Assembly: GCA_964016885.1 (NCBI GenBank)
Contig: OZ024742.1
Location: forward strand, 256,866,001 to 256,930,000
DNA from: Eledone cirrhosa
Lineage: Eukaryota
Direction of reading: 5' to 3'
Length of the DNA: 64,000 nucleotides
Positions 4,365 to 61,133 of the stretch are shown piece by piece. Within the stretch, counting starts at the first letter, position 1; the number at the start of each line of letters is the position of its first letter. The translations under genes were made by a program, and so were the position numbers. Under the pieces are notes generated by a model that had not been told where the DNA came from, did not search any database, and saw nothing but the letters and a program-made list of their open reading frames with translations.

Positions 4365-4720
4365 ATAACAAAGGAGTTGTGGTAAGGAGCCAGATGGACC
4401 ATAACGTACCAGAGTACTCAATACTTAGGGTAGGAGAGTGGGAAATATGAAAAAGTATGACCCTGACGGCAGACTTCAAGCCGTTTCGACGCCTATTCCT
4501 GGACTACGATGTTGTGTTTTCGCATCGTATCGTGGGGGTGAAGAAACTTGAGCTGGGTGGAAAAGTCGGGATATGGCGTGGTAGAGTCGGAAAATGCTCT
4601 ACTACAGAGATAGGAGCTAAATAACAAAGGAATTGTGGTAAGTAACCCGATGGACCATACCGAGTCCAGAAAAAAGCCGTCGAAACGGGTTGAGATCTGC
4701 CGTCGAGTCATACTTTTTCC
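4365..4720. repeat. Small fold-back repeat between (TA)n tracts
   Basis: Inverted arms at about 4450-4491 and 4678-4718 (AAAAAGTATGAC...GTTTCGACG / CGTCGAAAC...GTCATACTTTTT). Direct repeat ATAACAAAGGA..TGTGGTAAG..GATGGACCATA at 4365 and 4621. Confidence 0.7.
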
Positions 4721-5369
4721 TATATATATATATATATATATATATATATATATATATCGGGGAACACAAAGCAGGCTATGTTTAGAAAAAGCTAGCGAAT
4801 TTACAAATTAAGGTGTAACATGTGCTTACGCTGTATTTGACTGAATAGAATTAGTCTGTTAGTTCGGATTTTAGAAAACCCTCTGAATGTAAAAAAAGGA
4901 TGAGATAATTGACGTACAGGAGATACGGACCAATATATTTGGTTTGCCGGATCAATGTTTTGCTATTACACAAAAATGCCACCCATTATAATTGTGAAAA
5001 TATATATGTGTATATATATATACATGTGTATATATATATACACATATATGTGCGTACCTCTCATTATTGTCTCAAACTTCCACACGGTCGAGTAGCCAGG
5101 GAAGTATAGTAACTGCTTTTAAGCAAACACTATAACCACTATAACCACTTTCAGTCAACCTTGCCACCCCCTGTAACCTCGGTATCATGTATTAATTTCT
5201 CCCTCCGCCTTCTGAGATATTTTCCACTGCTACAAGGGATTTAGTCCCCTTTTTTGACCAGTGTATCACGAGATAATCTCTCCCTCCACCTTTTTGAAAT
5301 TTTCTCGCTTGCTACGAACGTGTCTGTAAATCGCTCTTCCCCTGAGGAGTTCCCTTGAGAAGATGGTTG

Positions 5370-6720
5370 GCCTCACAACAATGGTACACATCTATAATGT
5401 AAAATTGTTGCACACTGACCAGCGAAACTGTACAGTCGGGACATTTAGGAAAAAAAAGTATAAATATGTGTATATCATCCACATATCTAGTGAAGAAAGC
5501 GAAGTTCTCACAGGATCTTAGTACTTGGCGGTATAGTTTGTGAATGTACGAAATAGCCAATAAACAGGAGATGCTAGATCCCATGGATAATCAAGATGAC
5601 TGTCGAGAAATTTTTACCAGGAAGTTGAAAAGGCGTTGTTGACAATGATGAATACGTGTTGGTGATGTCGTTGGCGGTGAACCTACACATTCAGTGAGCA
5701 TTTCCACAGCCGGGTTGCAGGTACCGATGTGTAGATGGACATTACAACTAGGCTGAAGGCGTACCTGCTGGATTTGAGATGGTCAAGTTCAAGTTGGTTG
5801 AGTCGCTGGATGACATTATCCGATCTGTAGACGTGGCCTGGGAAGGCTGTCAACAGGAGCTTTAAAATATTGGACAGAAGCCAAGCGAGTTTATAAGATG
5901 GTCCTTCAACACTGGAGACAATGGGTCTAATTTTCAGGTCTTTCTGGGTTTTGATCAGGTGGTAGAATTTCGGCAGCTTACTATTTCTCGTTATGTAATT
6001 CTACTGGAATCTCTTCGGGAGCATTGGCCGGTCACAGATGTTGGTCCAGGCGGTCTTGATCCGTTTCTCTATCAGCGCGGGTGAAATTCCAGTGACTTGC
6101 GAATAGAGACTGTCGTCGTTGAGATGTTGGTGGGCTAGGTTGCTCTAGGCCTCTCTGTTAATAACACAAAACTCTTTTCCCTTGTCCGATGTGAGGTATA
6201 CGAGGTTCTTAGATCTGAGTTTGCTTAGGGTAGCGAGTTGTTATCTCAAGAGGGTCTGGTGAGTATGTGTGTGTTTATGTAGGATGTTAGAAATGATACG
6301 TTTAACTGCAAGTGTTTTATCTCGGAGTGGCGGTTAACGGATCGAGCGTGTAATAAGATGTCACGATAGTAATAGGTGAATGTTGAGTTCAGTGTGGAGG
6401 TCTCTGAAGTGTCGATGAAAGACAACCACTAGATGGATCTGTAGAAATTGGCCTTAATGTCCGGTTTGAACCTATCATCGAGTCGTTGAGTCAGGATGAA
6501 CTTGGGACCGAGACCGATGAGTTGCATTTCATAGTTGTAAATATACTCGGTTAGATCTGTGATGAGGTGTAGGTTGTCACCCCTCTGCTGGTTAAGGGTG
6601 GTGGTGCTCATAGTGTCGGAGGGTTTAGTGTTGTTGTCTTTGTGCCGTCCAACAGGTTGGACCTCGACTCCATTAGGATTAGAGGTGGTATAGTAGGGTG
6701 GATTTTGTGATCCCATTTAA
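5370..6720 (-). mobile_element. Decayed Penelope/Poseidon-type PLE, N-terminal region and RT
   Basis: Minus-strand motifs GLGPKF, SDKG, KLPKFYHLIKT..LKIRPIVS, MGSSIS and TRYVDDI, interrupted by stops and frameshifts. Confidence 0.85.
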
Positions 6721-6842
6721 TGCTATTCCTAGAATTAGTCTCAGTTTTAAGGGTCCAGTCGAATTGATGTTTGAGACGTTTATTCTCAAATTGGATCCGG
6801 AAATGGTTGCACTCGTCGATAGCATTACAAATCTGCCCTACC

Positions 6843-8345
6843 CAAACTCGACATTAAGGCCAATTTCTACAGAGTCATCTAGTGGTTGTCTTTTATCGAC
6901 ACTTCCGAGACCTCCACACTAAACTCAAAATTCACCTATTACTATCACGACATCTTATTGCACCCTCCATCCGTTAAAAGAGGGTACTTCTTCAATGAAA
7001 TGGGTCGCATACGCAACCGGTGCAGTGACACTGCTTATAAAGCCGCCCATATCAGACGATTTCACACGGTGTTAGAGATTAATGGCTACCCAGCTTCTTT
7101 CTCCACACCTGAGGAAAAACCCGCAGCCCCGTAGACCGGACCAATACACACAACAGATGTTTCTTCAAGATCCCACATCTTAGCGACGAAACAGCCAGCG
7201 CCATACGAAAAGCCATCAGGAGAGTGGGCCTCAATATCGAACTAGCTCACTCTAGACCTTCCCTTTTTATCGTATATATATATATATATACAATATATCC
7301 AGTTCTGCGTTTACAGATTGACTTTGTTAGTTACAGAAGATCCCCTTAAGGGTGAAAGCAGCGATTCTTTGCTTAAACTTTAATCTGTTATTTTAATAAA
7401 TATATATATATATATATATATATATATATATATATATATATATATATATATATATATATATATAATGGTATGGATATTCCAACAAGATTGTTTGATAATT
7501 GCTTGCTCCGCTCATTTATATATATATATATATATATATATATATATATATGTATATATATATACACACACACGCCTTTCACTACATAAAAGTCATCAAA
7601 TATGGAAACTGGGACAACAACATTACCAGCACAGTCTTAGCTACTGAACGCCATATAGACACGCTGAGAATTAAAGAAGCCCTCTTGATCACGCAATTAT
7701 AACATAAGATCAATAATCGAATGGAAAAAAGTGCACCTGAATGGCTAATTTAAATTAACGAACACAGTTACGTCATCATTTCAACATCCCAGTTCCATGC
7801 TATAGGGAACGTTTCATTCTTACGCTCAAGTTAAATCTACGTCCTCACTAAGCATACACACTTAGACTCTCACACACACATACATATATCACACACATAT
7901 TTTTACCTTTTTATCATATACATATTCGCACACAGCTTTCACTACATAAACTTACAATCAATCACACACATACATCACTCGTATTAAATCTAGGTCATCG
8001 ACACGTACATATATGTATCATACACATATTTTCTTCCCTTATATAATACACATATTCGTACGTGCCTTTCGCTACGTAAACATACACTCACACACACACA
8101 CATACATACATCTAACACTAAGGAAGCTTACATTTATACAATTTTAACGTCCATTGATTACATCTAAATTATATCTGTCTTAACAACTCATCTGCGATCG
8201 AGCGTTTAAGACCTTCACATAGATACTCCCTTGATAATGCGTTTTTAAACCCGAAAATATTTAGGATGATTAAATTTTCTTAGGTAAGATTCTAACGTCT
8301 TCTTCACACCTTGAATTTTGTTATGCAGTGTATGTCTTTTAAAAC
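6843..8345 (+). mobile_element. Second, oppositely oriented and internally deleted arm of the same PLE family (thumb, EN C-terminus, 3' UTR)
   Basis: 6843-6960 is the reverse complement of about 6352-6468. It is followed by HPPSVKRGYFFNEMGRIRNRCS...NGYP and, after a (TA)n-bounded insert, by TLRIKEALLI (GIY-YIG C-terminus). Confidence 0.75.
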
Positions 8346-59669: not shown

Positions 59670-60070
59670 CCGGGAGAGATGACCCCTCAGCCTTTGTCAA
59701 GGAAGAATTCTAGGAGAAGGAAAACTCTGATATAACACCTGCAACCCTATGGTATCCAATGATGTTGACCTGTTCTTCTTTTTGGTAAATATCATCTTGG
59801 TTAAGAGAGTGGGGCTGGCTTCGTGCAGTGCCTTTGCTCACTATAAAAGCTTCACGGCACAGTGAAGTGGAGATCTCTCTGCACTTGTTGTCACATGGTA
59901 CCATGGGCCCAGCACTAAGTGTCAATAATTGTCACAAGTGTAGTGTTTCTACCAGAGTTTTCAAGTCGCTGGCTGGACTAAAAAGTCACACTCGTTCAGC
60001 GCATCGGTAGGATTTCTCCTACAAGGATATAAAGTAGTTGCCGTACTCGAAAACGAGTTGGCAGCCACCA
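59670..60070 (+). mobile_element. Second copy of the RTE-like non-autonomous element
   Basis: Aligns with 13830-14240. Flanked by (TA)n on both sides. Confidence 0.7.
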
Positions 60071-60171
60071 TATATATATATATATATATATATATATATA
60101 TATATATATATATATATATATATATATATATATATATATATATGTATATATATATATATATATATATATAT

Positions 60172-60830
60172 AATTACAAGAAAGGAAGCGAGCTGTGTGG
60201 TTACAGTAAATAATGTTTAAGATGGCAATATGGGCGAAACAAGAGAATGACACATTTGTCACCTCTTAACTGCAGATCATAGGTGTTTCGGCGGTTAATA
60301 CAGGACATCAAAAGCGATCAGCAGCGAGCCCAATGCTTTTTATCGATCAAAAGGCCACGAGGGAAAGAAAAGAAAAAAATAGTGAGGAGAGAGGAAGAAA
60401 GTGGAAAAAACGAAGTGAGCAAACCGAAAGGAGTGGGGACAGAGGTCAATGGAGCATTCAAGAGAATAATCGAGGAAAAAATAGAATGATGATGGCGTGA
60501 TGTAATTCCGTGCGATCTCAACAGAGTGAAGGTAGAAAGAGAAAGAGAGAGAGAGACAGACAGAGCAGCCGGAAGTGAGAGGGAGAAGGGAAAGGGAGAT
60601 AATCCATAAGAGCTTTACGACATGTGTGAAACATGTCGTAAACAATCGAAAACGAGCAGATGGATAGAGAGACAGGGGTTGCGAGAAGGAGAGAGAGAAG
60701 GAGAGATTCAACATGAAAGCTTGGTGGGACCACAAATCGTGCAAAACAGGTAAAGGGGGGGGGGGTCACAGCAGTAAATGCAAAATTCCAAGAAACGAAG
60801 CGAGCTGTGTGGTTACTATAAACACAATTT
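60172..60830 (-). repeat. Unclassified element with short terminal direct repeats
   Basis: CAAGAAA.GAAGCGAGCTGTGTGGTTAC at about 60177 and 60789. (TA)n flanks. Degenerate hammerhead-like TTGATGT..GAAAC on the minus strand near 60283-60312. Confidence 0.5.
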
Positions 60831-60859
60831 ATATATATATATATAATTGGTGTTAGATG

Positions 60860-61133
60860 CTTAAAGCGTCCGTATGCGGTAGGCCGTATGAGCACTCGAT
60901 GCCCTCGTGGAGCAGAGTATGTTGTCCCAGAAAAAAGAGAATCAGTGTTGCGACGAAAGGAATTTATTGGACATAGGAAAATCTGCTTCGTAGAATCGAG
61001 ACGTATCCGACGACCGAGAGATTTCAGAGTCAGGTATGATCAACATATCGATCGTGCCTCGAGCTGGTCGCCTGAGAAACATTTGTAATATGTCCAATAA
61101 ATTCCTTTCGTCGCAACAATGATTCTCTTTTTT
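60860..61133. mobile_element. Short fold-back relative of the 57146-57541 element
   Basis: Inverted 45-bp ends at 60931-60975 and 61089-61133. Same GAGCAC...GAGCAGAGTAT tail. GACGTAT-CCGACGA...GAA-ACATTTGT-A-ATATGTC. Confidence 0.75.

Follow-up and report, generated by a model that had tools for sequence, protein, structure and literature searches.

A duplicated sequence box lies near the copy ends of lopsided Hydra-clade PLE fold-backs in Eledone cirrhosa

How PLEs form tandem or inverted one-tailed insertions, and how they choose microsatellites, are named as open questions in PMC8557442 (Craig et al. 2021). In that paper, the Hydra clade of C-terminal EN+ PLEs, which includes Hydra-1_Obim and Penelope-13_HM, is described as preferring (TA)n and carrying hammerheads. 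An inverted 5'-truncated copy with a one-sided tail is itself published for PLEs, in the Fig. 2 legend of the same paper and in PMC3846280, where self-priming was put forward as the source of the inversion (Arkhipova et al. 2013). The one in vitro study, on Poseidon PAc (Frangieh et al. 2024, PMC11167929), traced the tail to two RT start sites, saw cleavage and extension of both strands, and found downstream RNA to be required; what sets the two starts was not found. Minimal type I hammerheads have been described in PLEs and in non-LTR retrozymes (Cervera and de la Pena 2014, PMC4209133; bioRxiv 10.64898/2026.07.22.740005).

The window analysed here is a stretch of 64,000 nt of the Eledone cirrhosa assembly GCA_964016885.1 (contig OZ024742.1, positions 256,866,001 to 256,930,000, forward strand), and its features are collected in Table 1. 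A preliminary description had listed 11 sites as independent inverted repeats, most of them lopsided in (TA)n. All 11 are indeed inverted repeats, with arms 82-99% identical, but 31320, 57146 and 60860 are members of one family; two fold-backs, at 28494-29134 and 6334-6977, had not been listed. When the 11 sites and 28494 are tabulated together, both outer ends lie at most 3 nt from a (TA)>=5 run in 11/12 elements, the exception being 30303, whose tail end passes through (TC)n and is 24 nt away from TA. This flanking exceeds the microsatellite background: among non-TA positions, 0.9% are no more than 3 nt, and 2.7% no more than 10 nt, away from a run of this kind. Tail ends were positioned by eye at the TA run and short ends were set by arm alignment, so only the short ends provide a non-circular test. 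The fold-back at 6334-6977 is without TA flanks.

One-sided tails of 33-153 nt occur at 10 of the 11 sites, in agreement with the claimed asymmetry; 27293 has a tail on both arms, differing by 8 nt, together with (CA)n in its right arm and an additional inverted tail piece (28262-28317). The tail sits on the shorter arm in five window cases and on the longer arm in four, as it also does in L058, a fold-back in a relative, so that no general rule places the tail on the shorter arm. The idea that the tail copies flanking DNA was likewise rejected, as it is element sequence common to independent insertions. That 3' ends point outward is borne out by reading frames at 15339, 31320, 40580 and 48078 and by hammerhead strand at 25986, 30303, 57146 and 60860, but the polarity of 55214 is not readable. 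PLE origin, (TA)n targeting and two distinct 3' end points are supported from the preliminary reading, but all are published features: it is largely confirmed that the hairpin-shaped insertions are PLE copies, probably for the most part of the Hydra clade, in the lopsided form already described, an architecture ordinary for PLEs. The further proposal that fold-back is the default outcome is not established: besides the fold-backs, the window contains one Neptune-like copy with no inverted arm, a lone hammerhead stub lacking an inverted partner, three orphan tails and an array of direct tandem repeats. Among related short-read contigs, 5/77 have an inverted copy and 28/77 a direct repeat, a weak comparison because such contigs break at fold-backs.

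Table 1. Features of the window, with coordinates counted from its first letter; Hydra-clade assignments are by motif and by-eye alignment.
Feature	Coordinates	Strand	Remarks
Fragment, scrambled coding, presumably Penelope/Poseidon-like	5300..7800 (approximate)		internal fold-back 6334-6468 / 6843-6977
4365, non-coding fold-back	4368..4720		from 256-nt tandem unit
Solo hammerhead stub	14417..14520	-	ends in (TA)n 36 nt past predicted cut
Element A (site 15339), fold-back assigned to Hydra-clade PLEs	15339..22016		arms 15409-18582 (-), 18853-22016 (+)
A, mirror hammerhead copy	about 15450-15518	-	
A, RT + C-terminal endonuclease frame	18583..20628	+	N-terminus missing
A, type I minimal hammerhead	21907..21975	+	predicted cut after 21965, 49 nt before short end
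Orphan tail	22181..22310	+	perfect box (22256); directly after TA run
25986, tandem + inverted fold-back	25988..27235		about 310-nt unit; tail about 35 nt
27293, non-coding fold-back	27280..28317		tail on both arms; decayed hammerhead, box-like motif
Unlisted fold-back	28494..29134		73-nt arms, 129-nt tail, TA either side
30303, non-coding fold-back	30305..31229		from 541-nt tandem unit; tail on longer arm
Element B (site 31320), decayed full-length fold-back assigned to Hydra-clade PLEs	31320..37321		tail on shorter left arm
B, box 1 in tail	31379..31405	-	3 nt past short-end site
B, box 2	32905..32925	+	GCTCC-N8-TAGAGCGC; fold-back junction 3 nt upstream
Direct tandem array, 4.9 x 608 nt	37348..40324	-	between TA runs; not fold-back
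Element C (site 40580), fold-back assigned to Hydra clade	40580..44886		coding copy on -
Element D (site 48078), 3' fragment (endonuclease) fold-back assigned to Hydra clade	48079..50333		
55214, fold-back in (TA)n	55215..56911		33-nt one-sided tail
Orphan tail	56987..57080	-	perfect box (57069); adjoins TA run
57146, non-coding B-family fold-back	57109..57548		hammerhead on both arms; box 1 in tail
60860, non-coding B-family fold-back	60846..61139		box 1 in tail

By their motifs and by-eye comparison with the published alignment, we assign elements A-D, all inserted in (TA)n, to the Hydra clade. The single frame of element A runs from RT to a C-terminal GIY-YIG-type endonuclease, reads DKT (SDKTNNLY), a CxCx5C linker (CNCRDRSKC), CxxC (CDLC) and CxH (CKH), lacks a CCHH motif, and aligns end to end with 13 relatives, three of which match Pfam GIY-YIG weakly (best E 0.0025) and one RVT_1. 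The A protein itself matched no Pfam family and its profile no PDB chain, so that the domain call rests on the motifs and the printed Hydra alignment. DKT stands in place of DKG in A, with a decayed equivalent in B; C and D have the CxCx5C linker, CxxC and CxH in decayed form, again with CCHH absent. The N-terminal RWK motif reads RRLRWRAF in B, likewise in the relative P0001, and A, C and D are without the N-terminus.

Element A is the youngest copy, its arms 99% alike and already lopsided, with a 270-nt loop, both copies 5'-truncated and a 70-nt tail (15339-15408) carried by the shorter arm. Its arms differ by 12 non-synonymous and 1 synonymous changes (2.6 synonymous expected), a neutral pattern which indicates that the arms matched when the element inserted. 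In B, the long (+) copy begins at 32902, with its start codon at 32941. The tails of C (95 nt) and D (153 nt) are on the shorter right arm; the loop of C carries an inserted L1/Tx1-like fragment and a SINE-like repeat, and D contains an inner hairpin (49258-49412). Among the non-coding elements, 30303 holds just over one tandem unit and a hammerhead with a long stem II; 25986, which is not Hydra-type, has a U3-A8 hammerhead in four copies, with one present in every full unit. In 55214 no hammerhead, box or coding sequence was found, and its shape suggests a PLE origin; a MITE or other DNA transposon is disfavoured by the asymmetry of the terminal inverted repeats, with 33 nt extra on one side.

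Hammerhead-like motifs near the tips had been described throughout. Scores rise above the null maximum (score 8 in 300 random pieces) at five of the 11 sites (15339, 25986, 30303, 40580 and 57146), but at 31320, 60860, 48078 and 27293 the motif is decayed and scores at or below the null, and none was found at 4365, where the scan gave nothing scorable, or at 55214. Among the coding elements, the canonical hammerhead of the 3' region is thus above the null in A and C and decayed in B and D. Several window hammerheads bear a stem II insert of 30-60 nt. The Rfam scan of the window returned hammerhead matches below threshold only (26133, 26746), amid many microsatellite-driven miRNA matches. Nor do the ribozymes lie at the tips, the predicted cut being 49-65 nt from the short end in Hydra-type elements and 130 nt in 25986. 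Identity of the short end with the ribozyme cut was rejected on the same 49-65 nt separation. In 60860, the inner end of the tail arm (60975) is the predicted cut plus 1.

What the preliminary description overlooked is a sequence box likely to position both ends. In this conserved box of 20-25 nt, RCTCY-N8-15-YYGAGCAC, the 3' half follows the ribozyme cut at a distance of 52-75 nt in 23/31 distant Hydra loci (shuffle mean 0.4, max 4 in 1000), with the 5' half 8-15 nt further upstream in 23/23 (null mean 2.9, max 9). It stands ahead of the start codon in 38/51 loci, is conserved across proteins merely 32-40% identical, and usually occurs twice, 55-83 nt apart (35 pairs from 34 loci), the boxes, in tandem arrangement, coming after the hammerhead and ahead of the next start codon. 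It can also be seen in the Hydra consensus sequences of PMC8557442, without remark in the parts consulted, which give no cis-motif for copy ends. In nine of 11 informative loci the copy stops short of box 1 or box 2, 2-11 nt on its upstream side (P about 3e-7, at an estimated chance rate of 0.125); the ends of the other two, L038 and L068, are not at a box. A TA-rich patch precedes box 1 by 2-11 nt and is where short ends are found, whereas tail ends coincide with a patch preceding box 2; the length of the tail thus equals the distance between boxes. Within the window, the short end precedes box 1 by 3-7 nt in 4365, B, C (box 1 at 44800), D, 57146, 60860 and 28494, the last with a degenerate box 4 nt past the short end. 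In 4365 the short end is 5 nt before box 1 (4439, -) and the tail end 3 nt before box 2 (4617, -); in L058 one end precedes box 1 by 9 nt, the second being located at box 2. Overlap with TA of at least 3 nt is present at 8/12 breaks (P 6e-5), and the uncapped mean overlap is not significant (P 0.09). 5' ends, too, are at boxes in B, in the published Hydra-1_Ajap (which starts 2 nt before box 1) and in the 608-nt array, which carries boxes, has both its ends 3-7 nt upstream of box-like motifs, and showed no hammerhead.

A profile HMM spanning hammerhead to box gave two window matches under E 0.05 (22249, 31475), so the window boxes rest on the pattern scan, which found nine perfect matches (7 places) against none in the reversed window and, at one mismatch, 55 against 31. 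That scan was negative in 25986 and gave no clear box in 30303. The box halves pair over just 4 bp, and the folding energy is no better than for a shuffled spacer (-5.7 vs -6.0 kcal/mol). Covariation of the box among relatives was rejected, since the four ACTC/GAGT matches lie in coding sequence; the double change is confined to window families and may have a single origin. On these data the box could act as an RNA signal or as a DNA one.

Raw reads confirm the fixed TA-joined short end of A, with (TA)n joined at 15409 in 5691 and 6647 reads of two samples. Because RAD libraries are biased, no conclusion is drawn from the excess of short over tail reads, which is roughly 2:1. Read depth is 20-60-fold higher at the tip of A, which may reflect many stubs or relatives sharing just the tip. 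Read joints at 15406-15746, 15409-15422 and 15410-15790 fit tail-only arms with ambiguous geometry; those from 18570-18576 to 18852, considered as the fold-back junction, are the ordinary colinear ORF on a folded reference.

The box is likely a signal that tells the enzyme where copying starts, which would explain the one-sided tail. We give even weight to the fuller scheme in which the Hydra-clade RT-endonuclease would bind each RNA box and prime from both ends of a (TA)n break. After cleavage of (TA)n on both strands by the endonuclease, the two free 3' ends would each pair with a UA patch beside a box (2-6 nt overlap), and two cDNAs would extend toward the RNA 5' end until they stopped at the ribozyme cut, at the other start site or at a random point and repair joined them head to head. 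One start per box would yield a one-sided tail, two starts at box 2 the both-arm tails of 27293, and an early-stopping cDNA a stub or orphan tail; the template could be one tandem RNA, a circle or two RNAs. Counted against this scheme are the mixed tail polarity, the ends of L038 and L068, the tails of 25986, 55214 and 30303, which have no clear box, the 5' ends at boxes, for which a cut is as good an explanation as a collision, and the report in PMC11167929 of initiation without target homology, unlike the TA overlap here. More tentatively, and at somewhat less than an even chance, the clade-wide duplicated RNA box might be where each half of an RT-endonuclease dimer docks, fixing both priming points so that a single transcript programs the lopsided fold-back. 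If true, a determinant of PLE ends would for the first time be defined by its sequence, and this in an RT family sister to telomerase.

The box may instead be a DNA site, bound by the GIY-YIG domain, which would cut the TA patch a few bases upstream and so resolve a longer inverted or tandem DNA intermediate. This would fit the presence of both 5' and 3' ends at boxes, as in Hydra-1_Ajap, the TA patch at the start of orphan tails, and a box that is near-invariant, weakly pairing and near-palindromic in its 3' half; PMC8557442 also ascribes the tail to endonuclease resolution, and earlier work cited by PMC11167929 found the Drosophila tail to be needed for endonuclease recognition. However, most targets are plain (TA)n without a box, the spacer varies from 8 to 15 nt with no 10-nt phasing, and PMC11167929 traced the tail to RT start sites on RNA. 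We consider this reading, taken jointly with its corollary that elements would also insert into older copies, unlikely.

That arms of A were alike at insertion would also suit a snap-back, in which a single cDNA uses a short match to fold back and serves as template for the second arm, with later trimming of the tail at one end; near-matches exist at the junctions of A and 57146, and self-priming has been proposed (PMC3846280). Identical arms, however, are equally expected from one RNA or one source copy, and the tail is shared element sequence rather than a copy of the flank. Plain snap-back, one of two options in the preliminary description, leaves unexplained the tail on the shorter, inner-truncated arm in 5/9 window cases with readable polarity (A, B, C, D and 60860), because copying the longer arm cannot add a tail, and we regard it as quite improbable. 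Arrival with two tails, one lost later by slippage between the internal TA patch and the flanking (TA)n, would account for the TA overlap of the short end and for the two tails kept in 27293; it is very improbable, given that the youngest copy is already lopsided, that the short end is constant in thousands of reads and in unrelated species, and that ends at box 2 and box conservation are left unexplained. That the fold-backs are assembly or library chimeras can practically be dismissed: the A junction (18582/18583) is not directly seen in reads and strand switches can arise in short-read libraries, but the two arms are 1-18% divergent and show indels, nested insertions and deletions confined to one arm, strand-switch joints recur at identical coordinates in two samples (one also in a contig), and L026 and L058 have the same form in other organisms.

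A description of the box was not found in the papers or in the PMC11167929 supplement, subscription journals, Repbase reports and bioRxiv supplements being outside the search. Within the literature searched, the duplicated box near copy ends is new here, and fold-back architecture, (TA)n targeting and hammerheads were already known. Conservation of the box and its fixed distance from the ends let mutagenesis separate RNA priming from DNA cutting, and the box can serve as an annotation marker for the true ends of Hydra elements and their non-coding derivatives.

In L1 twin priming, both target ends prime on RNA to give head-to-head segments, the second priming occurs through chance homology and the inversion comes without duplication; unlike there, both starts here appear to be at fixed sites and the arms duplicate each other. 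The palindromic loop III, the U3-A8 variant, the opposite-strand pairs 100-700 bp apart and the non-coding tandem units resemble the minimal hammerheads and retrozymes of PMC4209133 and bioRxiv 10.64898/2026.07.22.740005, whereas the stem II insert in several window ribozymes and the box in the small units set them apart. As in PAc (PMC11167929), two RT starts would bound the tail, both strands would be cut and extended, downstream RNA would be required, and the ribozyme cut is not the start site; PAc starts, however, lie inside the ORF at an AC-rich stem-loop, with no target homology or defined motif, and those inferred here are at TA patches of the 5' leader, next to the conserved box. The head-to-head arms, outward 3' ends and tail at one end follow general EN+ PLE structure as given in PMC3846280 and Fig. 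2 of Craig 2021, and a canonical tail of 33-35 nt, as in general EN+ PLE insertions (30-40 bp), is found in 25986 and 55214 only; a target-site duplication is unreadable in (TA)n, and the duplicated box accounts for the Hydra-type tail length. Close too is the Hydra clade as described in PMC8557442, which shares DKT, the CxCx5C linker, the lack of CCHH, CxxC and CxH, the canonical hammerhead, (TA)n and the inverted 5'-truncated copy, but has tails of 30-40 nt rather than the 70-153 nt of the Hydra-type copies here; the 1.4-kb 3' region of A is a further difference.

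Insertion ends of Hydra-clade Penelope-like elements (PLEs) in this region stand at a fixed offset from a motif, the box (RCTCY-N8-15-YYGAGCAC), that is both conserved and duplicated; box 1 is the copy nearer the ribozyme cut and box 2 the second copy, before the start codon. Many insertions here are fold-backs, inverted repeats with 3' ends outward that mostly have a short end on one arm and an extra stretch, the tail, on the other. Window self-comparison recovered all 11 inverted repeats of the preliminary description and two more (28494-29134 and 6334-6977), with arms 82-99% identical. 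In coding elements A-D the outward 3' ends can be read from the reading frames. Both ends lie within 3 nt of a run of at least five TA units in 11 of 12 tabulated elements, against 0.9% of non-TA window positions; the fold-back at 6334 stands outside TA. Since the positions of the tail ends were set by eye, a fair test of this adjacency comes from the short ends. A one-sided tail of 33-153 nt was likewise found in 10 of 11 listed elements, 27293 being tailed on both arms. The proposed hammerheads fared less well: the descriptor score exceeds the null maximum in five of the 11, but the motif is decayed in four and absent in two. Nor do ribozymes mark the tips: in Hydra-type copies 49-65 nt separate the predicted cut from the short end, which the ribozyme therefore does not make.

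Features of the window with their positions
Feature	Positions	Strand	Description	Basis
Element A	15339-22016		coding Hydra-clade fold-back	reading frames
Element B	31320-37321		coding fold-back	reading frames
Element C	40580-44886		coding fold-back	reading frames
Element D	48079-50333		coding fold-back	reading frames
Hairpin	49258-49412		95% identical, nested at element D junction	
L1/Tx1-like 3' fragment (zf-RVT)	42657-44260		GC-rich, inside ORF of C	
SINE-like repeat	44371-44556		adjoins L1/Tx1-like fragment	
Hammerheads with long stem II insert	57259-57339, 57410-57490, 30965-31036		insert 50-62 nt, core to GAAA; B-family trait	
Neptune-like PLE	8620-12450 (approx.)	+	DKG, Zn-finger linker, Pfam GIY-YIG; no inverted arm; TA run on 5' side	
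Direct array	37348-40324		4.9 x 608-nt unit, 99.8% identical, TA runs at both sides	
Hydra-type RT fragment	158-415		at window start	
Solo tail piece	24775-24827		27293 family, TA run on either side	
Solo hammerhead-like cores	29461, 46358, 57582	+	partly decayed, no inverted partner	
Repeat of roughly 410 nt	13828-14238, 59670-60070		two copies, 92% identical, abutting (TA)n	

By their motifs, the coding copies A-D add new members to the Hydra clade. The protein of element A has DKT, CxCx5C, CxxC and CxH and lacks CCHH, a combination given as the mark of the Hydra clade in PMC8557442, and by eye it resembles the Hydra alignment printed there. Its 28 relatives share 30-39% identity with it, and Pfam and PDB searches gave no recognition of it. 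The arms of A differ by 12 non-synonymous changes and one synonymous change where 2.6 synonymous were expected, which indicates that they were alike at insertion. Among the other fold-backs, 57146 and 60860 are short B-family members by self-comparison, 25986 combines a U3-A8 hammerhead with a tail of about 35 nt, and 55214 has a 33-nt tail and no other diagnostic feature. The ORF of B (window 33000-36000) has a G+C content of 44-54% versus 28-36% in that of A, with a long insert separating thumb from endonuclease. The hairpin nested at the junction of element D means that more than one strand switch took place in this insertion.

Fold-back had been put forward as the default outcome, and the window does not bear this out: besides the 13 fold-backs it holds a Neptune-like copy without inverted arm, a solo hammerhead stub (14417), three orphan tails and a 608-nt direct array. 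Among 77 related contigs, an inverted copy occurs in 5 and a direct repeat in 28, short-read contigs under-reporting inversions. Raw reads of two samples mapped on window 15339-18852 gave several strand-switch joints, with few reads each and identical coordinates, so fold-backs of the element A family exist independently of the assembly; the joints seen do not include the junction of element A. The Neptune-like PLE, whose clade is our assumption, carries frameshifts, a SINE-like insert (9385-9570) and a further insert near 11090-11560. The 608-nt array has box-like motifs on the minus strand, one beside each array end, and a search for a hammerhead within it found none; a recent non-coding passenger of Hydra elements is one possible reading, expansion of part of it during assembly another. 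In contigs of two distant Hydra relatives (L019 and L042), two complete units follow each other as direct repeats with 99.6-99.9% identity; these may be genuine dimers or loops of the assembly.

Conservation of the box was assessed in distant Hydra relatives: of 77 loci, several of them with open reading frames, 40 have a scorable hammerhead, and these 40 form 34-37 clusters at 75-90% identity. YYGAGYRC lies 52-75 nt beyond the cut in 23 of these 40; eight others are too short, six end in TA 31-44 nt beyond the cut and three do neither. The 23 come from 31 loci with at least 80 nt, where shuffles gave a mean of 0.4 and a maximum of 4 (1000 shuffles), and all 23 have RCTC 8-15 nt upstream of YYGAGYRC (null mean 2.9, maximum 9). 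Of 51 loci whose upstream sequence was long enough, 38 also have the box ahead of the start codon, mostly as two copies, spaced 55-83 nt (35 pairs from 34 loci). Because the box downstream of the cut is the one ahead of the start codon, the tail is the beginning of the next unit's leader. A search of papers and one supplement (that of PMC11167929), with subscription papers, Repbase reports and bioRxiv supplements outside its scope, found no description of the box. Each copy of the repeat of roughly 410 nt starts, on the minus strand, 4-5 nt past the TA run, with a one-mismatch box.

Where insertions end was read both from raw reads and from copies within loci. (TA)n is joined at 15409 in 5691 and 6647 reads of the two samples (minor site 15419, 1424 and 1475 reads), so the short end of the A family is fixed. 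For the 40 hammerhead loci the 3' copy was compared with the locus's own 5' copy, leaving out 13 without a 5' copy, 8 running to the contig end and 8 matching another family only. Nine of the remaining 11 end 2-11 nt before a box (box 1 in two, box 2 in seven), and L038 and L068 end elsewhere; the chance probability (P ~3e-7) uses an estimated chance rate of 0.125, and L034 belongs to the same family as L038. Seven window elements (4365, B, C, D, 57146, 60860 and 28494) have their short end 3-7 nt before box 1, the boxes of D and 28494 being degenerate; in element A the first half of the box has been lost, and in reads of its family it is present 2 nt beyond the short end. The tail of 4365 ends 3 nt before box 2, as seen from its tandem unit, the long copy of B starts 3 nt before box 2, 39 nt ahead of its own start codon, and the distant fold-back L058 terminates 9 nt before box 1 on one side and at box 2 on the other side. 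Among published consensuses, Hydra-1_Ajap starts 2 nt before box 1 with box 2 inside, and box 1 forms the end of Hydra-2_Amil and Hydra-2_Ajap. In the distant locus L026 the end lies 7 nt before box 1 and the long copy starts about 5 nt beyond the ribozyme cut (L026:245), while the tail arm of 60860 starts at the predicted cut plus 1 (60975); such inner (5') ends, no more than 5 nt from the predicted cut, hint at occasional use of cleaved RNA as template. In 8 of the 12 window elements the break shares at least 3 nt with an alternating TA patch (P 6e-5); the mean overlap capped at 6 nt was reached in 0 of 100000 draws, and the uncapped mean gave P 0.09.

How could a box set both ends? In the reading we favor, held at about even confidence, the RT-endonuclease, predicted to be a dimer in PMC11167929, would bind each box on the RNA; both ends of the cut (TA)n would pair with the UA patch and prime, and the two cDNAs, halting at the ribozyme cut, at the other start or at random points, would be joined head to head. 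Against such priming, the stem of the box is only 4 bp long and gains no energy relative to shuffled spacers, no covariation was seen in the box among relatives, boxes also mark 5' ends, tails occur with mixed polarity, and a clear box is missing from three elements that have tails. The main rival, that the box is a DNA site positioning the endonuclease, is possible and we consider it rather unlikely. Snap-back is improbable, as a tail on the shorter arm would be impossible without a trimming step. Later slippage fits poorly and seems very doubtful. An artefact deserves almost no credence and is a poor fit: arms diverge through indels, one-arm deletions and nested insertions, as with (CA)n in a single arm of 27293 or the L1/Tx1-like zf-RVT fragment and SINE-like repeat nested in 40580 (element C), which argues against assembly chimeras. 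The box makes an acknowledged open question on PLE ends testable by simple mutagenesis.

The fold-back architecture itself is already known for PLEs. The published account of Hydra PLEs has an inverted 5'-truncated copy with a tail at one end, hammerheads across the whole clade and a (TA)n preference in 26 of 27 listed families (PMC8557442); head-to-head arms with one inverted pLTR tailed, and self-priming, appear in PMC3846280, and hammerheads paired across opposite strands at distances of 100-700 bp, as well as the U3-A8 core, in PMC4209133. In vitro, both strands are cut and extended, the tail is bounded by two RT starts and the ribozyme is dispensable (PMC11167929), and retrozymes are derived from PLEs (bioRxiv 10.64898/2026.07.22.740005). 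In the light of this literature, the picture first drawn from this window is real and already known.
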